From Lama glama (taxonomy: Eukaryota), in assembly GCA_028534125.1 (NCBI GenBank), contig CM052816.1, positions 65,660,001-65,724,000 on the forward strand: DNA of 64,000 nucleotides, in the 5' to 3' direction. The translations under genes were made by a program, and so were the position numbers. Under the pieces are notes generated by a model. That model did not search any database. It saw only the letters and a list, made by a program, of their open reading frames with translations, and had not been told where the DNA came from. Numbering within the stretch: position 1 is the stretch's first letter; each line of letters opens with the position of its first letter. Shown here in pieces: positions 7,260 through 64,000 of the stretch.

Positions 7260-7588
7260 TGATATCACTTATATGTGGAATTTGAAAAAAAATGGCACAA
7301 ATGAACTTATTTACAGAATAGAAACAGTCTCACAAACAGAGAACAAACTCATGATTACTAAAGGGTGGGGAGAGGGATAAATTAGGAGTTTGGGATTAAC
7401 AGATATAATTACTATATGCAAAATAGATAAACAACAAGGTCCTACTGGATAGCACAGGGAACTATATTCAATAGTTTGTAATAACCTATAATGAAAAAGA
7501 ATATATCTATGTATAATTGAATCACAATGCTGTATACCAGAAACTAACACAACGTTGTACATCAACCATATTTCAGTTTTTAAATTAG
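7260..7588 (+). mobile_element. 5'-truncated L1 3' end (cetartiodactyl type)
   Basis: ATATCACTTATATGTGGAAT...AAACAACAAGGTCCTACTGGATAGCACAGGGAACTATATTC. Degenerate TSD at 7242-7259 and 7589-7606 (14/18 match). Confidence 0.9.
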
Positions 7589-10386: not shown

Positions 10387-10544
10387 TTATTTTTTTAGTG
10401 AAGTATAGTCGGTTTACAATGTTGTGTTGATTTCTGGTATACAGCATAGTGATTCAGTTTTTCATTATTGGCAATTACAAGATACTGAATATAGTTCCCT
10501 GTGCTATACAGTAGGACCTTGCTGTTTATCTATTTTATATATAG
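10387..10544 (-). mobile_element. Short L1 3'-end fragment
   Basis: GAAGTATAGTCGGTTTACAATGTTGTG...GAATATAGTTCCCTGTGCTATACAGTAGGACCTTG, with T-rich tail on the left. Confidence 0.9.
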
Positions 10545-11086
10545 TGTGCTTTTTTAACTCACAGAGGAAAATACCCTTTTTTTTTGACTCTGAAAGTTTT
10601 AAAATCTAGTTGCATAGAATATGATTTTGTTTCTTTATTTGGCTTTGCTTTTACATGTTTCTACCCCAAGGTTCTTTAATTTTGATTGAGAGAGGAAGTC
10701 AGTCTCCAGAAAATACATGTAAAGTATAAGAGAAGAATTCTGATAGAATATGCCCGATTCCTGTTAATATCAGAAAAGCATTTCTTAATATAACCTAGAA
10801 TGCTTATTTTGCATGAGTGATTTATGTCAACTGTGGAAGAATAAATGAGACTTTGAGACTGGGTTGCGGGGGAGGCTCTAGGCTGTTTTTGGCTGATTCA
10901 AACAGCCAGTTTTCAAAATAATCTGCCCACGTAAGTTTTAGATATCACTTAGTCCAAACAGCTAGTTGTTGATGCCAGTTTTCACCTTTTAACAAGCAGT
11001 TGTGCTTTTCCATACACACCATCAAAAAAGGAGTAGGGCATTACATTTTAGAGTAAGAAAATAAAAGTGTATTTGCTGTTACTTCA

Positions 11087-20087: not shown

Positions 20088-20318
20088 ATGTGTGTACATA
20101 TACATGTTTTATCAGATATGAACAGTTCTTTTTACCTCTTAAAAGCAGCAAAAACTTAAAATATTGACATTATTCAGTAGTCTTAGTAGTTGAAATTTAA
20201 GGATTTAAGAGGCTTTTACTGATTTAAAAATAAAAGCTGTGAAGCAAATCCTGAGCCCTTTTATACTTTTTTTTTGAATGAAAGTCCATGAAACTTTTCT
20301 TCTTTCCCTGTCATTTTA

Positions 20319-20394
20319 TAGTTTTAAAAAAATTTTTATTGAAGTATAATTGGTTTACAATGTTGTGTTAATTTCTGGTGTATGGCATAGTGAT

Positions 20395-20455
<61 letters not shown>

Positions 20456-20704
20456 CTTTTCATATTCTTTTTATTACAGTTTATTACAAGATATTGAACA
20501 TAGTCCTCTGTGCTATACAACCGGACCTTATTGTTTAGCCGATTTTGTGAGGACTTCCCTTGTGGTTCCAATTATACAAGATCTTCTACCGAAGTTCAAT
20601 AGATAGTCTGTTAGAACTGTCCCATATGCAGATGTATTTCTGATGTATTTGTGGGAGAGGATGAACTCCGCATCCTTCTACTCTACCATCTTGAAGCCCC
20701 TACC
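20319..20704 (-). mobile_element. L1 with 5' UTR start joined directly to 3' UTR end
   Basis: Minus strand begins CAAGATGGTAGAGTAGAAGGATGCGGAGTTCATCCTCTCCCACAAATACATC (L1 5' start). After ~160 nt it continues as TAAACAATAAGGTCC...GTATAGCACAG (L1 3' UTR). TSD at 20302-20318 and 20705-20721 (14/17). Confidence 0.8.
20401..20452. repeat. (TA)26 microsatellite inside the L1 3' UTR
   Basis: Direct reading. Confidence 0.95.
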
Positions 20705-21199: not shown

Positions 21200-22230
21200 G
21201 TTGCAATACCCTTGTCCCCAGCTTCCTTACTTGTTCTCTGGCTCCCCTGCAGTCTAATCCCCAGTGGTGGAGTTATGCTACAAAAGCAGTAATTAGGTTA
21301 CATCTCATTGCCTTCCATGCACAGACATCCAATGGGTTCCCATTATCATGTAGTCAAAGTCCAAGTTCTTGCTGTGTCTTTTTAAAAAAAAAATTTTAAT
21401 TGAAGTATAGTTGATTTCTGGTATACAGGATAGTGATTCAGTTACATATAAGTATTATTTTACATTTTCTTTTTCATTATAGGTTATTACAAGGTATTTT
21501 ACGTAATTCCCTGTGCTATACCGTAGGTCCTTGTTGTTTATCTGTCTTTTATATATGGTAGTGTGTATATCTGAATCCCAAACTCTTGATTTATCCCTAC
21601 CCCTCTCCTTCCTTTTTGGTGACTGTAAGTTTGTTTTCTATGTCTGTGAGTCTCTTGCTGTGTCTTTTAGAAGTCGATGTAATCTGTTCTCTGCCATCTA
21701 CTTTCCAGGGGTCTGACCTCAAGCCACTTTCCCCCTCATCCGCTCATGCCCACCACTCTGTCTTCATTGCTGCTGCTCAAACATAGCAGGCTTGTTCTGC
21801 ATCATGGCTTTTGCACCTACTGTTCCCTCGGCCAAGAAATCTCTTCCTCTAAGTATCTGCCTGGCTGGTTCCATCCTATCCTTCCAATCACTGCTCCTTT
21901 GTCACTCTGAATGCGTTTCTGTCCATGCTATTCCCATCATTATTTAGATTTTTCCAAAATTTTTTTGTACCTTCTGTTCAAAGTGCAGATGTATTAATAA
22001 TAAAATGTAAAGAATTAAAAAAAAAAACCTGCTCTATTTTTCTTCATAGCGTCTGTGACCTACTGTATCTTTTCTTGTTTCCCTGTATATTGACCATCTT
22101 CCTCCAACAAGAATATAAGCCCTTAGAGGGCAAGGGCTTTTGTCTACTTCTTCACAGTTGCACCCCCTAGGGACCTGTTACATGCCTAGAAGTGTACCTG
22201 GCACATAATAGGTGCTCAATAAGTGTTTGT
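21200..22230 (+). mobile_element. L2 fragment interrupted by an L1
   Basis: Ends GTACCTGGCACATAATAGGTGCTCAATAAGTGTTTGTGAAATG, the canonical L2 3' end. Left boundary approximate. Confidence 0.75.
21383..21652 (-). mobile_element. 5'-truncated L1 3' end
   Basis: L1 3' UTR motifs. Perfect 16-bp TSD TCTTGCTGTGTCTTTT at 21367-21382 and 21653-21668. Confidence 0.95.
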
Positions 22231-23474: not shown

Positions 23475-23864
23475 TTAAAAAATTTATTGAAGTGTAGTTG
23501 ATTTACAATGTTATTTTCAAGTATACAGCATAGTGATTCAGTTATACATATATATACATACTTTTTCTTTTCAGATTCTTTTCCGTTATATGTTATTATA
23601 ATAAATTAAATATAGTTCCCTGTGCTATATAGTAGGTCCTTGTTGTTTATCTGTTTTATAGTAATGTTTGTTAATCCCCAACCCCTAATTTATCCCTCCC
23701 CACCTTTTTCCCTTTGGTAACCATAGTTTGTTTTCTATGTCATGAGTCTGTTTTTGGTTTGTAAATAGAATTTGTATTTTTTTTTTAGATTCCACATATA
23801 AATGATTTCATATGATATTTGTCTTTCTCTAACTTACTTCATTCAGTAGGGTAATCTCTAGGTC
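23475..23864 (-). mobile_element. 5'-truncated L1 3' end
   Basis: TTGAAGTGTAGTTGATTTACAATG...TTAGATTCCACATATAAATGAT...AATCTCTAGGTC. TSD AAATAATAC at 23466-23474 and 23865-23873. Confidence 0.9.
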
Positions 23865-26390: not shown

Positions 26391-26395
26391 AGATA

Positions 26396-26801
26396 GAATG
26401 TCATTCTAAGTGAAGTAAGACAGAAAGAGAAAGAAAAATGCCATATGAGATCACTCATATGTGGAACCAAAAAAAAAAAAAGAACATAAATACAAAACAG
26501 AAACAGACTCATAGACATAGAATATAAACTTGTGGTTGCCAAGGGGGCGGGGGGGTGGGAAGGGACAGACTGGGATTTCAGAATTTGTAGATACTGACAG
26601 GCATATACAGAATAGATAAACAAGATTATACTGTATAGCACAGGGAAATATATATGAGATCTTGTGGTAGCTCACAGCAAAAAAAATGTGACAATGAATA
26701 TATGTATGTTCGTGTATAATTGAAAAATTGTGCTCTACACTAGAATTTGACACAACATTGTAAAGTGACTATAACTCAATAAAAAAGTTAAAAAAATAAA
26801 A
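26396..26801 (+). mobile_element. Young camelid-type L1 3' end
   Basis: TTCTAAGTGAAGTAAGACAGAAAGAGAAAG...GGTAGCTCACAGC...GCTCTACACTAGAATTTGACACAACATTG...CTCAATAAAAAA, then an A-rich tail. Confidence 0.9.
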
Positions 26802-30835: not shown

Positions 30836-31680
30836 TTCTTTTTTTTTTAATTGAAGTATAGTTGATTTATAATGTTGTGTTAGTGTCTGGTGTACAGCAA
30901 AGTGATTCAGTTTTATACACAAACACACACACACATATTTTTTCCTATTCTTTTCCATTATGGTTTATTACAAGATGTTGAATATAGTTCCCTGTGCTAT
31001 CTGTACAGTAGGACCTTATTGTTTATCTGTCTTATATATAGTAGTTTTATCTGCTGATCCCAGATTCCTAACTTATCTCTTGCCTGTCCCTTTCCCCTTT
31101 GGGAATCATAAGTTTGTTTTCTATGTCTGTGAGTCTTTTTCTGTTTTGTAAACAAGTTCATTTGTATCATATTTTAGATTTCACATATAAGTGATATCCT
31201 ATTATATTTGTCTTTCTCTGTCTAATTTACTTCACTTACTATAATAATCTCTAGGTCCATCCATGTTGCTGCAAATGGCATTATTTCATTCTTTTTTATG
31301 GCTGAGCAGTGTTCCATTGTATGTATATGCCACGACTTCTTTATCCATTCCTCTCATGATGCACACTCAGGTTGCTTCCATGTCTTTACTACTGTAAATA
31401 GTGCTGCTGTGAACAAGGGGTGCATGTATCCTTTCAAATTAGTGTTTTCATATTTTCTGGTTATATACCCAGGAGTGGAATTGCTGGATCATATGGTACC
31501 TCTATTTATAGTTTTTTAAGGACCCTGCATATTGTTTTCTATAGCAGCTGCACCAGTTTATATTCCCATCAGCAGTGTAGGAGGCTCCCTTTTCTCCACA
31601 CCCTCCCCAGCAATGATTATTTGTAGACTTTTTGATAATGGCCATTCTGACTGCTGTGACGTGATAGCTCATTGTAGTTC
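30836..31680 (-). mobile_element. 5'-truncated L1 (ORF2 C-terminus plus 3' UTR)
   Basis: T tail at ~30836-30848, then GTCCATCCATGTTGCTGCAAATGGCATTATTTCATTC and ATATACCCAGGAGTGGAATTGCTGGATCATATGG. Confidence 0.95.
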
Positions 31681-47218: not shown

Positions 47219-48286
47219 TTTGCAAATAATATGTCTAATAAGGGGTTAATATTTAAAATATACAAAGAACCCCTACAACTCATTATCAAAAAACCCCAAA
47301 CAATCCAATTAAAAAATGAGTAGAAAACCTAAATAGACATTTTTCCTAAGAAGAAATACAGATGGCCAAAGGCACATGAAAAGATGCTCAACATCACTAA
47401 TCATCAGGGAAATGCAGATCCAAACCACAATGAGATATCACCTCACACCTGTCAGAATGGTTATCATCAAAGACAAAAAATAACAAGGTTTGACAAGGAT
47501 GTGGAGAAAAGAGAATCCTCATACTGTTGGTGGAAATGTAAATTGGTGTGGCCACTATGGAAAACAATATGGAGTTTCCTCAAAAAAATTAAAAATACAA
47601 CTACTATATGAATCAGCAATTCCATGTCTGGATATTTATCTGAAGAAAATAAAAACACTCATTCAAAAAGGCATATGCACCCTCTATGTTCATTGCAGCA
47701 TTATCTACAATAGCCAAGTTTTGGAAGCATGGAAGCAACCTAAGTGCCTGTCAATAAAGGAATGGATAAAGAAGATATGATATATATATATAATTCAGCA
47801 ATACAAAAAAAAAGTGAACTCTTGTCATATGCAACAACATGGATGGAACTAGAGGGCATTATGCTAAACAAAATAAGTCAGACAGAGAAAGACAGATACC
47901 ATATGATTTCACTTATATGTGGAATCTGAAAAACAGAACAAACTAACAAACATAACAAAACAAAATCAGACTCATAGATTCAGAGAACAAAAAGTGGTTG
48001 CCAGAGGGGAGGAGGTGAGAAAAGGAGAATGGAGCAAAATTGATGAAGAGGACTGATCACAAACTTCTGGTTATAAAATAAATAAGTCACAGGGATGTAA
48101 TGCACAGCATAAGAAACATGGTCAATAATATTGTAGTAACTTAATATCATGACAGATAGTAACTAGACTTGTTATGATGATTGTTTCATAATGTATAAAA
48201 ATATTGAATCACTAGGTTATACACCTGAGGCTAATATAAGTCAATACTTCAATTTTAAAAATGTTATCTTAAAAAAAGTTATCTAA
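47219..48286 (+). mobile_element. 5'-truncated L1 (ORF2 C-terminal remnant plus 3' UTR)
   Basis: Translates to L1 ORF2p C-terminal motifs (CWWKCKLVWPLWKTIWSFLK) with frameshifts. TSD at 47200-47218 and 48287-48305 (17/19). Confidence 0.95.
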
Positions 48287-51600: not shown

Positions 51601-51814
51601 TTTTTATCTAAGGCATTTTAACAAGGGGATGGACTCAAGTTTATACATGTGAGATGCTCACATATTTTCTTGTTTAAAAGATTTCAAAAACTTACTTCCA
51701 GGTATCCATATTCATGTGTGAAATAATGATTGAGTTCATATAGGATATAAGAAAATACGGGTTTTTATTAGAGAGGAATATAAGGAGGTAATTGTCATTA
51801 GAAAGACTTCTTTG

Positions 51815-51944
51815 CTGATGACCATTGAACCAGAGTCAAAACAAGATTGCACTGTAATCATAAGGATGTATGCACACTTCTAAAACCAGTCCGTGTTGCC
51901 AGGGACATCACAATAACTTCTGTGGGTCTGTTTGAAAAGAGCAA
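51815..51944 (+). repeat. 130-bp dispersed direct repeat, copy 1
   Basis: Aligns ungapped to 52661-52790 with 11 mismatches by hand count. Confidence 0.95.
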
Positions 51945-52559
51945 GAGAGAATTACTTATTTTTTCTTTTATTTCTTTGACTTAGTTTGATGTATTTTTAT
52001 GAGCAATCTTGAATTTCTGAGAGCATGTCCTCTTATTCCTACAAGGATGGTTTTGTCTCGATATTCTTGAAATGGCTGTGCAAAATGGTTTCCTGGAGAG
52101 TTTATCACTGAGGCAGAGGTCATTTAAAGACAGTATTTTAAAGAACAATGTCAAAGAAAATGGCTTCTGTTTCTGCTCTTAACACGCATTCCCTAGAAAG
52201 AAGAGACCAGGAGATAATGGTTGAACCAGCATGTTTCCATAATCTTTCCTAAGGGAGTTATGTTGTATATAAACAAAGAATAAAAAGAAAAATCATGTCT
52301 ATAAACCAACGAGTGGTTTTGACAAATAGTTAACCATTGACCGTGATTAGAGCACCACAATGACCAAAGAGCCTTACTTCCAAAAAGAGTCAGATCATAA
52401 AATTGTAATGTTGGGAGAGACCAAGCAAGTATTCTGGTCAAGGAGTTTTCATACTGTGTCCTTTGGACAGCCTTTCCCACCACCACCCAGAGGAACCCAC
52501 AGAACACAGAAGAGGGGCCAGAAACTATATGGAGAATCCCAAATGGAGGATTCACAGGC

Positions 52560-52655: not shown

Positions 52656-52660
52656 ACTTC

Positions 52661-52790
52661 CTGATGACCATTGAACCAGAGTCAAAAAAAGATTTCATTG
52701 TAATCATAAGAATTTATGCACATTTCTAAAACTAGTCCATGTTGCCAGGGGCATCACAACAACTTCTGTGGGTCTGTTTGAAAAAAGCAA
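52661..52790 (+). repeat. 130-bp dispersed direct repeat, copy 2
   Basis: Aligns ungapped to 51815-51944. Confidence 0.95.
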
Positions 52791-54876
52791 AAGTGTGTGT
52801 TTGTGTGTTTTGTTTTGTTTTGTTTTTGGTTATTAGCATTTCTTTGCCTACATTATTTTACTTCTCCATCCATTAGAAAATATAACTGCTGTGTTGAATA
52901 GGATTCATGGAGCACAGTCGAAAGCATTTGTCTTTCCCCCAACACCCTTTATGCCCAATAGAGAGGTGAGACTCAGAACACTTGCAACTCTCCCAACATA
53001 AATCTCTTGAATGTCCTGTCTCTCCTTTTTCAGTCCTCCCGGCCTTTTCTAAAAGCTGGCTGTGGGATGTCAGCTAGGTCAGAAAGCTGCACGTTGGCAA
53101 GTCCTATGAGATGGTCTAGCAACTCCATGGTGCTGGATGGTTTGCCCTCTCTTGTTTTGTCTTTGACCTTCTTAGGGCCTCTGGTGAAATGAGAGAAAGA
53201 GCCCCACGGACACCTTGGTACACAAGCAATTGTTGAGTTCGAGCACACTGGGTGCGGGATGCTGCCTGGCCAGGGCTGACCTGGTTGCTTTATAAACACT
53301 AAAGCCTATAGGCCTTGACTTTAAATCCATTTCAAGGGAGAATGATGAATTATTTTAGTCAGGGCAATGTGCTTGTAAGGAAGTGGACTCCATAAGGCAG
53401 GAGCCACCCTGCCATGTTGATTATTATTGCCTATCCAGCACACAATAGGTACTCAGTAAGTGAATGAGTGAACAGAAATCGATAAAAATTAGCTCAAGTA
53501 AAAGGAGATTTGTTGGAAAGACACAGAATAATTTCAATGAAATGGCATGCTGAAAATTAATGTCTGGCTTCATAGGGTGCCCCATTCTTGCGTGTTGGTT
53601 CCAGTAACCTCTCTGCTGATAAATCTCAGTGACCCAGTATGGCCATGCGCCAGAATGATGCAAATACAGTGCCCAACGTGAATGAAGAAAAGTAGAAACG
53701 TTCTTGAGCAGCCTGGACTGGACCAGAACGTGAGAGTTAGATGACAGTGGGAAATGAGGGAGGTAATCTGTGACATTGACAGACAACGTTTTTAGTAAAT
53801 CTTACACCATCTGGAAAACATAGGGTGGTATTATCTCCACTGTTACACCCTACAACCTTAAAAGAGAGTTTGTCAGAGAAACACGTACTTTCCATGTACC
53901 TGAAAAATAATATTGCCACAAGAAACATCATTTTTTCTTACGTTAATTATTCCACCCTTTTAGATAACTTGGCAAATTTTAAAATATCACCAAACAGTTG
54001 AGTTAAAAAACTCATAAGCTTTTAACTACTAGAATATTCATGAAAAAATCTTGGAAAATTTCTCCTTTAATGAGATTACTGAAGTATTAACACACATTTT
54101 AGGTATTGAAAAAACAAAATTAAAAAAATACAGCTTCCAAAAAATGTCTCCTGTGAGTAGGAAGACCAATTTGTATGGCACGAAGTATTAGTAAAATAGT
54201 TAGAGAAAAAGTCAAGAAAATTCTCAGCAGTGGAAATTAAAAATTAATTTGCATACTCTCCCTACCCCTGTGTGCATTTATAGGATATATACCATGGTTA
54301 TTCTATTAGATGATATTTTATGAGTTTAGTACTACTTTGATTAATATCATCACTGGAGAAACTCTTACTTTTCATGACCTTATAGAGGTTTATCAGTTTT
54401 CTGATGGCGAGAAAAGGATAAGCAACTAAAATTGGCCAAATGCCCAACAACCTACCACAGACATAATTTTACTTTACCCTCCAGCATACGTATTCACACA
54501 CATGTGTATATATATATCTAACTGAGACAAAACATTCACAAAGTTCTACTTACTCTTACTATGTGTGTTGAATCTAATCTATTCCATTGGTCATAACATT
54601 TGTCACAACCCATGCTGTGTTTCACAACCTTCCCATTGGTCATGCCCCCACAGTTTGAAATACACTGACCCAGGTTAAACGTGTAAATGGGAAATTTGAA
54701 GATATCATCAAGGATGGAAGGGTTAATAAATAGAACATTTGTATTATTTCCTCTGAGGACAGATCAGAAGAAATGAAAGCATGGTTAGATATTGATCTGG
54801 AATTGTTTAGACTTAACCATGGCTAGTAAGGGCAGACTGTGGTCTTAGTATAGTATCTACCTGAGAGTTGTTGTGG

Positions 54877-58149: not shown

Positions 58150-58897
58150 CCTCCTACACTGTTGGTGGGAATGTAAATTGGTGTAGCCACTATGGAAAAT
58201 AGTATGGAGGTATCTTAAAGAACTAAAAATAGAGTTACCATATGATATAGCAATCCCTCTCCAGGTCATTTATCTAGAGAAAATTCTTAACTTAAAAAGA
58301 TACCCAACGTTCGTAGTAGCACTGTTTACAGTAGCCAAGACATTAAAGCATGTAAATGTCCATAGACAGATGAATGGATAAAGAAGATGTGGTATATTTA
58401 TACAATGAAAGGCTACTGAGCCATAAAAAAAAGAATGAAATAATGTCATTTGCAGCAACATGGATGGACCTGGAGATTATTATACTAAGTGAAATAAATC
58501 AGACAGAGAAAGACAAATATCATATGACATCATTTACATGTAGAATCTTAAAAAAAACACAGATGAACTTAATTACAAACCAGAAACAGACTCACAGACA
58601 TAGAAAACAAACTTATGGTTACCAGTGGGGAAGGAGGGTAGGGATAAATTAGGAGTTTTGGATTAGCAGATACAAACTACTATATAGAAAATAGATAAAC
58701 AACAAAGACCTACAGTATAGGACAGGAAACTATATTCAATGTCTTGTAATAAGCCATAATGGAAAAGAATATGAAAAAGGATATATATGTGTGTATATAC
58801 ATATGTGATGTGTGTATATATATAATACATAACTGAATCACTTTGCTGTACACCAGAAGGTAATACAATATTGTAAATCAATTATACTTCAATCAAA
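58150..58897 (+). mobile_element. 5'-truncated L1 (ORF2 C-terminus plus 3' UTR)
   Basis: CCTACACTGTTGGTGGGAATGTAAATTGG...GCAGCAACATGGATGGACCTGGAG. Perfect 15-bp TSD AAAGATTATGGTTTA at 58135-58149 and 58898-58912. Confidence 0.95.
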
Positions 58898-58945
58898 AAA
58901 GATTATGGTTTATAATTTCCTACTTCAAGTAGGGCCACTGTTTAG

Positions 58946-59559: not shown

Positions 59560-59965
59560 GTACAAGTCAAGATAGGCTAGGTTATTCTGCAGTAATCCAA
59601 AATCTACATAGCTTAATACAAGTATACTTTATTTCTTACTCTTCCTACATATCCAAGAGCCATAGATATATCCATAGATTTGCAAGGAGGCTCTGCCCAT
59701 TGTAGCCAATCTGGGACCCAGGGTGGCTGACCTTCCATCTCAATATAGGCTTCCAGTTACCTTAACAGGGAAAGAGAATGTTGTAAATCAGGCACAAGAT
59801 CTTAAAGCGTTCACCTGAAAGTGACATGTATTAATGCTGCTCAAACCCACTGGTTAGAGTATATCACATGACCATGGTTGACATCAAAGAAGGGGGAGGG
59901 TTAGGATAATCCTACCATGGACCCATAAAGAGAAAAGCTACACATATTTGGTAGACACATTAATC
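59560..59965 (-). mobile_element. Old MaLR LTR (MLT1J/K/L-like)
   Basis: GTCAAGATAGGCTAGGTTATTCTGCAGTAA...GGCTCTGCCCAT...GGGACCCAGGGTGG...GAAAGTGACA...TCACATGACCA. Confidence 0.7.
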
Positions 59966-60071
59966 ATGATTTCACTCTTTTCTGGACTCCCCTCCACTTT
60001 CTGTAACTTTTTGGGGATTTGGTTTCAGTTAAGCAGGAAAAAGGGGCTTAAGTTATATTTTTGGTGGAAAA

Positions 60072-60123
60072 AATACTCCATGTTAACTATATTACATAAT
60101 ACTCCGTGTTAACTATATTACAT
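60072..60123. repeat. 26-bp tandem duplication
   Basis: AATACTCC(A/G)TGTTAACTATATTACAT x2, one mismatch. Confidence 0.95.
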
Positions 60124-60324
60124 AATGTACCTGAACTTAAAATAAATAGGTACACATGGCATACAATGAACTCGAAAGAAATAAAATACAAGAATTTTTT
60201 TAATTGAGCCTATTACTAAATCACTTTTATTGGTATTATTTCACCCTAGATCATTGCTAGCCTAGCCCTTTTTTATAATAATATATGCACTGTGATTTAA
60301 ATTATATAGGCATTACCCCTCTCT

Positions 60325-60950
60325 GCTTACCTTTAAAATTCTTAGCCAAAACCGACTTTTATGGCAAAAATAATTAAGAATGAATACAATATCCAGAATA
60401 CATTCTGGTTTGTCTATAAATTCTAATCTCAGCTCTATCTGGGAACTGTCAAAGGAACAATTACAGTGTTGCTCCATTTTTTTTCAGCAGAACTGATTCC
60501 TGTTGTCCCACTTGGAGTGACATGTTGAGTGATGAGAAACTTGGCAAATCTCCTTGGTCATTTTCCTCTAACAGTTCACTTTAGGGCATCCTTATTGGTC
60601 TGCACCTTCCTTTCAGCCTGACCATTTGCTTGAGGGTGATGAAGAGTGATGATGACAGATTGGATAAGCTCTAGCTTCACAGATTTCTTAAACACATGTG
60701 AAATAAATGCAGATCCATTGTCAGGAATAATACCATCTGGAAATCTGGACATTGACAAGCCCTAATAACAAAAAATAACAGAGCTGTTTTTGTTGAAGCA
60801 GAGGTATTTTGAGAAGGTAGCTGCAGCAAGCACAAAATTTGTGTCCTTGCAAAATAAATAGGAGTTCTAACCAAGCCTTCTTGACTATTTTCCATGAGAA
60901 GGAAATGTGTCATTGGTGGATTATATGGTGTGGTCTGACATTGGCTAAAT
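60325..60950 (-). mobile_element. Fossil Gypsy/Ty3 LTR-retrotransposon integrase (rve domain) remnant
   Basis: Translation FPDGIIPDNGSAFIS..F......I....TLHHPQANGQAERKVQTNKDALK has exactly 35 residues between D and E. It continues past stops as RFAKFLITQHVTPSGTTGISSAE. Confidence 0.85.
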
Positions 60951-62944
60951 ATTTCAGTATTGCAATTAATTAGAGGCTTTAGATATTAATTGTTAGTATA
61001 TAAATATTCATTCAAAAATTCCTTGGTATTGCATATATTAATGCTGTAATAATACGATGAATTATATGAGGTCTCTCCTCTGGTCACTGAAAAGTAAGAA
61101 ACAAAGAGCTTTGATTAGAAATTGGGGTCTGAACTGTATATTCGGGAGGTATTAGCATAGTTAAAACTATGAAAGTAAATTGGCTCCCTGAGCTAGGTCA
61201 TGTAAAAAGACAAAAGATCTAGAACAATCTTGAGAATATCCTCAGCCAAACTGAGGAACAAAAGACAGACAGACACATAGATGGATTCAAAATGCACATC
61301 CTGAAAATAATGAAACAAAAGAACCGGATCTCACATGACTGGGAAGCATAGGTTATAAGGAAGTGCTCTCAAATTGTGGTAACTAACAGTGAATTGGCAT
61401 ATGTTCTAAAGCGGTGAACTCCAAATTAGTGGTGAGTAATCACTTGTCAGGGAAAAGGTTTAGCATGGGGTCTATTTATACTTCAGATTAGGGACTATCT
61501 CCAGTTGCCTATGGGGAGCGCTTCAAAGTTATGTCAATTGCCTGTTGTTTCAGAGACTTCTTTGATCAGATTCAAAGAAGTCTCCAAACACTGCAGGAAT
61601 GGACAGACTCTTTACCAATTTTTGTCCTTCCTTAGAAAACTAAAATTTTGACCTTTTGACTATTTTTAGACCATTTTTGGACACACTTTGTACTTTGAAC
61701 TAACTTTGCCGTTAATCACTATAACAAATACAATTTATTCTCTATGTATCATATTCTAGGCTTTCTTCCAGGTCATGCTTTATTTCTTTCCTTCTATATT
61801 TTTAGTTTTTTTTTCCCCCATGTGAAAATGGAGTGATTTGAACTAGATGTAATTAGATTAAAGGTCATGAACCTAGCTTTCTTTGACAAGAAAATCTACA
61901 CTCCTGTTACTGGAGTTGACTTACTCATGTTTTTTGTCTGGTGGGATTACAGTGTCTGGTGGGAGTTGGCATCAAATGTAAGCAAGAAAGTAATCCTTCT
62001 CCTACAATCTTCTTTTAGTCTTTATTTTCCATGTATGTTGAGAGCATTTCTAGTCAGAGTTCTTTTTTTTTTTACGCTGTTACCAAGTAGTGCAGTCTCC
62101 AGTAACTTTTTAATTAGTTTGTGACATATTCGCCCTTTAATCAGGTCTACAATGGCCAGCCAACTGTCTTCAGTGTCAGTTTTAGGTAGGCATTAGTATG
62201 ATAATATGGAACTGGTTGACAATCTTAATTTTAAAGCATTTTGGAGGAGATATTTTATGAATGGTGTTGAGGGACTTATATGACCTGTCAAAACAATTCA
62301 TAAAATTCCTATTTTGAAGGGGAAATTAAAAGTCAAGGTGATGGAAAGGTTATATTAGTGCATTTGAAGGAGATGAAAGATGTAGAGAGGATGACTTTGA
62401 AAGCTAATGAGAAAGAAGCTACTTGTCAGGCAGTCTGTTCAAGAGCAATGTCAGCAAGTGAAATGGGTTGTTGCCTTTGGGGAAATGATTCACAGTGTCT
62501 GAAAACGATGAAATCCATATTGGTTTAGGAGCTGGATTGACCATGGCACCTCTCCTGACTTTTTGGCTCTCCCTTCCTTCCTGTTTCCAGTGCAAAATCA
62601 GCTTTTGCCTATGAAGTGTGCGATCCATACTTGGCCTCCACTCGTGTGTGTTCTTGATATGATTTAAAATAATGAGATTGGCATTGGATACTTCATTAAA
62701 CAGCCGTATTTACTTTAGGTCTGTATTTACCTATTCTTTGTAGTTTAGCTGGCTAAACTCAGACAAAGTCTTCTGAATTTGAGCCCTAATCAAGTGTTGT
62801 GCTTTCGAAGAGAGTATGCAGAATTAAAAGAATATACAGTTCCTCTTTGCGTAAAAAAACAGACTTTCCTTTTTCTTTTCCTGTTTTTCTCATCTCTCTG
62901 CTGTCGGACCTGCCCCAGGCAGGGACACTTAGGTCATATCCCTA

Positions 62945-63013
62945 GTATGTATGTATGTATGTATGTGCATATATGTATGTGTAGTATGTATGTGTATATA
63001 TGTATGTGTGTGT
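62945..63013. repeat. Imperfect (TATG)n/(TG)n simple repeat
   Basis: Direct reading. Confidence 0.85.
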
Positions 63014-64000
63014 ATTCCATTTTAACATTGAATAAAGGAACTTACAGTTTTTTAACCTTTTTTTTTTCATAAATGCAAAAATAGAATCTGTCCTGTAAGC
63101 AAATGATCTTGAACCCAGAGTAGCTACCTCTGGAAGTTTGGCTACTTGGTGATAGGCATGGGGCTCTACTGTGCTTTACTACCACCTAAAAAAATAAAGA
63201 CAAAAGGACGACACCCTGTGTGCTACTAGAGAAAGGCCACAGTCCGAGCCGAACTGCTTGTCACTTTCTATCCTTCAGGCTCTTTAAACTATCTTCCTTT
63301 TGGATGATGCTTTTTGTATCTGTTGTCACTTGTGCAACTGGCCAGGGAAAAGGAAATGAATAACATGATTGGAAGGAGTGTAGAGGAATTGGAGTCTTAG
63401 GATGATCCTTAGGATTTACAGAAGCCTTTAAAGCTATTTGTGCTGCTTTGTGGTGCTTTGTGCCCTGTGTCAGCTCATATTTCATCTTTACTCCATTTTT
63501 ATGTTCTCAGATCGAGGACATGTTTTAAAAATCATTCTTTTGACCTCCTTTCTCAGTCCACCCTGAAGCCTTCCAGCTTCCGGCCAACCCTATTAGCTTC
63601 TCTGATTGCATCTCCATGGTCCTTTCACTTGGTTAAGCAACACAAAGTGGATGCTTCAATGCCAAGACCAATACGTAGGAAATCTTTGTAAATGGCAGCA
63701 CAGGTTCACCTGCAAATATGAAATGTGAAGGAACTTCCATGTAGCTCCTGATGAGTGTAATTATTAATGCTGAAGTCAGTTCACAGTTTGCTGATACTAT
63801 AACGAGTTTTTGAATTACATTTCACTTAGTAGTGGAGCATTTTAGTCTGGAAAAAAAGCTTCATATATAGTATGACATTCGATATACTCCTGTAAAGCAC
63901 TGTTTCATCCTTTTAAATAGACTACAACATCCTGGAAGTGAAATCAAGATTTCTGAATGTCTAAAGCAAAGAAACACTGGAATGTAATCAATACATCTTC

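Follow-up and report, generated by a model that had tools for sequence, protein, structure and literature searches.

The DNA analysed here, a stretch of 64,000 nucleotides referred to as the window, carries on its minus strand between 60943 and 60329 what is, judged by similarity to natural proteins, a genuine decayed integrase of a Ty3/Gypsy retrotransposon. The whole recognisable remnant (60329..60943) was delimited by frameshift-aware alignments to the natural proteins P0009, P0013 and P0238 and spans the end of the zinc finger, the catalytic core and the start of the C-terminal region, interrupted by several frameshifts, one deletion and stop codons. The aligned match runs from the last Cys of the zinc finger (60940) down to 60335, with frameshifts near 60898, 60869, 60837, 60800, 60757 and 60481-60446, the exact positions of which shift with the penalty applied. 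The end of the H2C2 zinc finger (60902..60943, minus strand) begins with the peptide QCQTTPYNPP at 60943 and can be matched to the CQ segment in P0009 and in P0238. In the window only the last Cys of this finger is retained, whereas both Cys residues are present in the related copy P0161, and the His pair was not found by a profile search of the six-frame pieces of the window. The linker, placed by alignment at 60848..60900 on the minus strand, contains two Trp residues in one frame followed by an I.FA motif in another, with the frameshifts near 60898 and 60869 at or within its limits; the peptide WKIVKKAW (60894-60871) lies in a different frame from the zinc-finger end, and the two Trp of this peptide correspond in the alignment to those of intact proteins. 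The strand that should bear the first catalytic Asp was placed by alignments at 60801..60839 (minus strand) and is followed by a deletion or frameshift near 60800 that is common to other copies.

The catalytic core (60483..60761, minus strand) is encoded in a single frame and was detected by library, PDB and profile searches. It contains the peptide PDGIIPDNG, which begins at 60740, the second catalytic Asp at 60722 and the catalytic Glu at 60614; exactly 35 residues separate the two, which gives the D(35)E spacing that had been claimed from the sequence. In-frame stop codons are located at 60578-60576 and 60560-60558, and past them follows the TP..TTG..SAE stretch that ends at 60483. The degenerate C-terminal remnant (60329..60448, minus strand, by alignment) is in a shifted frame and comprises the PDR and VLAKNF segments, the latter ending at 60335. 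Accordingly, all peptides quoted in the sequence-only reading of this DNA were recovered from the minus-strand translations, at the reported places and in the order of an integrase, and its remark that no first catalytic Asp is recognisable also holds, with the specification that the position can be aligned (60821-60819) and that the codon does not read Asp. The blocks flanking the core are co-linear with it but weak when taken alone, as between 0 and 10 of 150 control regions equalled the score of the upstream block and between 1 and 8 of 150 that of the downstream block, the counts varying with the query and the penalty.

Database searches assigned the remnant to the Ty3/Gypsy group. Against a library of 1.84 billion proteins, 1826 proteins matched at E<=0.001, P0002, which headed the list, being set aside as a spurious match caused by 13 repeated stretches. 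The core shares 44 of 86 residues with the Xenopus tropicalis protein XP_012815575.1 (P0238; score 210), and none of 1000 shuffled sequences reached this score, the maximum being 45. A profile of 44 natural homologues applied to 2550 six-frame pieces of the window yielded a single match at 60743-60483 with 78 bits, the next region scoring 3.8 bits, and in a tblastn search 156 proteins, including full-length Gypsy Pol sequences, matched the window at 60941-60480 only. The named close matches comprise K02A2.6-like proteins from a leafhopper, a tick and a weevil and a gag-pol protein of a fish, which bears out the label K02A2.6-like proposed earlier; other close matches are uncharacterised proteins of nematodes, frog and viper. 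The K02A2.6-like group is putatively linked to the Mag clade. Among the long matches, the D(35)E spacing pattern was present in 111 of 145 and a TP..TG.SPAE-type pattern in 75 of 145. The anticipated match to the Pfam family rve (PF00665) was not obtained at the curated cut-off, three long frames matching no Pfam family and one of three short frames giving a hit to rve_3 of 12.1 bits (E 0.17; cut-off 26.5), whereas the intact relatives do match Pfam rve; the part of the same check that concerned Gypsy Pol integrases was answered by significant similarity in the sequence searches. Compared with the K02A2.6-like Gypsy integrases of Xenopus (P0238), Vipera latastei (KAM3838872.1) and Ixodes scapularis (XP_042148867.1), the remnant has the same order and spacing of motifs, including D(35)E and TP..TTG, but unlike these intact proteins it is broken and devoid of the first Asp, of gag, reverse transcriptase and RNase H and of a long terminal repeat (LTR).

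Neither reverse transcriptase nor RNase H was found in the window by tblastn with the 156 proteins, including full-length Pol, or by profile search, and no direct repeat indicative of an LTR pair connects 59701-60330 with 60951-64000. A stretch on the minus strand at about 61050-61260 resembles a fragment of L2 and could indicate where the fossil ends upstream. From the absence of Pfam matches in 148 window frames of at least 68 amino acids, of Rfam matches and of tRNA matches in the window, together with an observed/expected CpG ratio of 0.09-0.26 across its whole length, it follows that the window is intronic or intergenic. The region of the remnant contains 1 CpG in 626 bases.

Additionally, the searches gave 36 short open reading frames, taken from assemblies of Logan and ENA, whose likeness to the window far exceeds that of any intact protein. 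Matches of this kind extend to junk frames, as P0152 follows the window over 60941-60579 and P0161, P0162 and P0223 match it in the shifted upstream frame. Exactly at the first stop codon of the window end 21 of 31 of these reading frames, and 4 more end at the second, in a count that leaves out P0218-P0222. The deletion is common to all 16 reading frames listed from the search with the upstream motif, none of which has the KW.EV segment that is present in 65 of 145 intact matches. In a quick tree of 67 rows and 93 columns the window and 17 copies form one clade (SH-aLRT 95) with a long stem, and neither the frog nor the snake proteins are its sister group. The tails of P0215 and P0225 are misaligned in this tree and P0162 and P0163 have under half of their columns filled, for which reason its branch lengths were left unused. 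The shared breaks and the single clade suggest that the copies probably descend, as orthologues, from a single insertion that a mammalian ancestor already carried in a dead state, and the great age claimed for it is supported by the number of other copies that share its breaks. Orthologous DNA was present in none of 465 metagenome stretches and in none of 20 stretches of a viral scan; a metagenome scan with P0208 gave distant matches in 44 of 543 cases (31-47% identity, and 55% and 67% in two short segments) and no orthologue.

The best explanation of these data, which we hold with a probability of about 0.5, is a Gypsy insertion in an early mammalian ancestor that was disabled before the carrier lineages split and has been inherited as non-coding DNA. 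A K02A2.6-like Ty3/Gypsy LTR retrotransposon would have inserted at this locus in that ancestor, and the disabling lesions, namely the deletion behind the first catalytic strand, the frameshifts and the stop codon after the core helix, would predate the separation of the lineages. Vertical inheritance without any protein role would have followed, gag, reverse transcriptase, RNase H and the LTRs being either lost or no longer recognisable. The legibility of the core would then result from about 0.15 substitutions per site on the lineage and from the small number of insertions and deletions that chanced to hit the core. This estimate was obtained by simulation, with a wide interval, from the 18 of 24 near-invariant columns (at least 90%) that the window has kept, a retention that is biased upward because the homologues were chosen by their likeness to the window. 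A value of this size is nothing unusual in a slowly evolving lineage if the fossil dates from early placental times. Neutral decay on such a lineage can thus give the retention of 18 of 24 columns, and the proposal of the sequence-only reading that the remnant is unusually legible through non-coding constraint does not gain from this figure, which is within reach of neutral decay.

Among the alternatives, an origin from an endogenous retrovirus (ERV), a foamy virus integrase or a Ginger-type DNA transposon appears very improbable. It could be argued from the PDB search, in which the 9 sequences at E<=10 comprised 8 foamy-type integrases and Ty3-G, with E 4e-4 for the best match, an integrase of foamy virus, and E 0.09 for Ty3-G, and from the likeness of Ginger1 integrases to Gypsy integrases described in a section of PMC5753468. 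The foamy match, however, ends short of the TP..TTG motif; none of the named close matches is retroviral, all being K02A2.6-like, gag-pol or uncharacterised proteins from arthropods and nematodes as well as from fish, frog and snake; the full-length matches (P0032, P0033) carry gag, reverse transcriptase, RNase H, H2C2 and rve domains in Gypsy order; and the fossil clade nests among Gypsy proteins in the quick tree, which was built without ERV or Ginger rows. The assignment to Ty3/Gypsy rather than to ERVs made from the motifs is therefore upheld. A domesticated coding sequence, in the form either of a reading frame of 58 codons (60752-60576) or of an exon from a gene that descends from an integrase, is the least probable of all readings. 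This frame runs from ATG to stop in the window, in P0004 and in group H of the copies, and 28-37% of the sampled words occur in three RNA runs, which belong to two studies, without distinction of strand or level, runs with small word shares (0.04-0.07) being excluded as evidence. Protein-level selection on the remnant is nevertheless rejected. In 11 representative copies the changes were unrelated to column conservation (Spearman rho 0.04, p 0.76), with 1.17 extra states per column in 24 conserved columns against 1.05 in 20 variable ones, and the mean BLOSUM score of 67 distinct differences was -0.67, whereas simulated neutral change gave -0.29 and a set of 58 intact proteins +0.24. The catalytic residues are gone in several lineages, since the second Asp is replaced by Gly in 2 of 33 reading frames and unaligned in another one, and Lys stands in place of the Glu in 7 of 29 reading frames that reach this position; moreover, lineages A and E lack the start codon, and in lineages D, E and F the frame stops early. 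The shared openness of the frame is a matter of ascertainment, as the databases searched contain open frames only. The stop codons and frameshifts along with the missing protein-level selection confirm the non-coding status stated before. Domesticated mammalian genes derived from integrases include GIN1, SCAND3, NYNRIN and KRBA2. Such genes likewise descend from integrase remains of Metaviridae, according to PMC3670739, but they are open, coding and under purifying selection, whereas the copy in the window is frameshifted and shows no protein-level selection. It is also improbable, though less so, that the copies are paralogues rather than orthologues, spread by amplification of a non-autonomous Gypsy derivative that already bore the lesions. 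A defective master copy would equally produce shared lesions, flanking DNA was seen for no copy, and P0114 is merely 52-65% identical to the other copies. Against amplification stand the pairwise identities of 65-95% with nested subgroups, which seem higher and more tree-like than independent copies of a family extinct since early mammals would show, and, as a weak argument, the lack of a second copy in the window.

The most probable alternative, although still less likely than not, is that the DNA of the core, once the element was dead, was co-opted for a non-coding role and came under purifying selection for its nucleotide sequence. The core would then most likely act as an enhancer, or as a splice or polyadenylation signal of the plus strand, and evolve at about a third to half of the neutral rate. 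This reading differs from the ancestral, non-coding insertion described above in requiring slowed rather than near-neutral decay. In favour of co-option, at least eight distinct lineages are highly identical, at 65-93% with the exception of lineage F, and this range in the core would imply an evolution slower than neutral if the copies come from different mammalian orders. The window shows 78-81% amino-acid identity in the core to lineages A-E and G (K about 0.10-0.12), 65% to P0114 and 83-93% (48-54 of 58 residues) to group H, which comprises 17 sequences of at least five variants. A value of about 0.2 is the neutral expectation for a comparison of ruminants with a camelid-like sequence, and simulation at K 0.2 gave 31-45 identical residues of 58, with 52 reached in 0 of 400 runs, so that the variants of group H would exceed neutrality provided that group H represents ruminants, which is a guess, and that the window is camelid-like. 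The simulation includes neither CpG nor regional rate effects. One member of group H is identical at 25 of 32 positions in an out-of-register frame, and the likeness therefore exists at the DNA level. The core is also more alike among copies than the 180 bases upstream (168 of 211 versus 143 of 209, Fisher p 0.01), the lineages in this test sharing the branch of the window, and ancient repeats are concentrated in conserved regions, as described in a section of PMC5753468. On the plus strand, a splice-acceptor-like pyrimidine tract followed by CAG (60605..60616), to be taken as a lead only, overlaps the codon of the catalytic Glu on the other strand as well as the least-changed block; this block, however, is covered by two fewer lineages. 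Acceptor-like matches number 25 in the window against 15 expected by chance, and AATAAA at 60702-60707 is a candidate plus-strand poly(A) signal. Searches for stable RNA structure gave none (z 0.47 and 1.00). Further points speak against co-option: identity within group H is 86-95%, which means that its internal differences are as large as those from the window, and close relatives under neutrality would fit as well; the copies were ascertained on the core, and lineage G, found via the upstream frame, shows no core excess (upstream 80-82%, core 75-79%); and the neutral rates are assumed values.

Traces of Gypsy elements in mammals are known. Table 4 of PMC5753468 lists MamGyp-int, MamGypLTR1/2 and the internal pieces X1_LR-X4_LR in the human genome. 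Like the piece in the window, MamGyp-int and X1_LR-X4_LR represent ancient, decayed internal sequence of Gypsy elements in a mammalian genome, the likeness being one of description only; MamGyp-int is accompanied by MamGypLTR1/2, whereas no LTR adjoins the piece studied here. Only rare and highly fragmented remains of Metaviridae are reported to have persisted in mammalian ancestors, with active lineages surviving in reptiles (PMC3670739), and mammals are described as having no functional Gypsy element, Mag being probably the oldest metazoan lineage (PMC2774666). Hence a fragment of this kind is expected in mammals (PMC3670739, PMC5753468). Among the papers listed in literature searches none describes this locus, which may still be annotated. 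The fossil is of a known kind and may belong to a catalogued family, with exaptation as a possibility; the joint claim that it is a constrained non-coding element kept across mammalian orders since an early placental ancestor and that it stems from a K02A2.6-like lineage absent from mammalian repeat libraries appears doubtful. In either case, it adds a datable relic to the record of Gypsy elements lost by mammals and bears on the question of which lineages lasted longest in mammalian ancestors. Should nucleotide-level constraint prove real, the locus would clearly exemplify how the coding region of an integrase can be put to non-coding use once its protein has died.

The stretch is evidently genomic in close relatives, as 14 DNA runs with five organism labels contain 0.93-1.0 of the sampled words, although two of these runs may come from the source itself. 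Elsewhere in the window, one interspersed family, which resembles 3' ends of cetartiodactyl L1 elements, occupies 7260-7578, 10387-10545, 20314-20537, 21388-21661, 23483-23864, 26395-26786, 30843-31679, 47523-48015 and 58150-58900, its longer matches being 65-80% alike. No second high-copy family was seen in the window, and four SINE-head motifs had 0-1 matches each, a picture that would suit a camelid-like genome. A direct repeat of 136 bases (51812-51947 and 52658-52793; 90% identical, about 710 bases apart) may be a local duplication or a decayed LTR pair. Tandem duplications of about 94 bases with 84% identity (1498-1591 and 1597-1687) and of 26 bases with one mismatch (60072-60123) were also detected, the latter just past the downstream end of the fossil.
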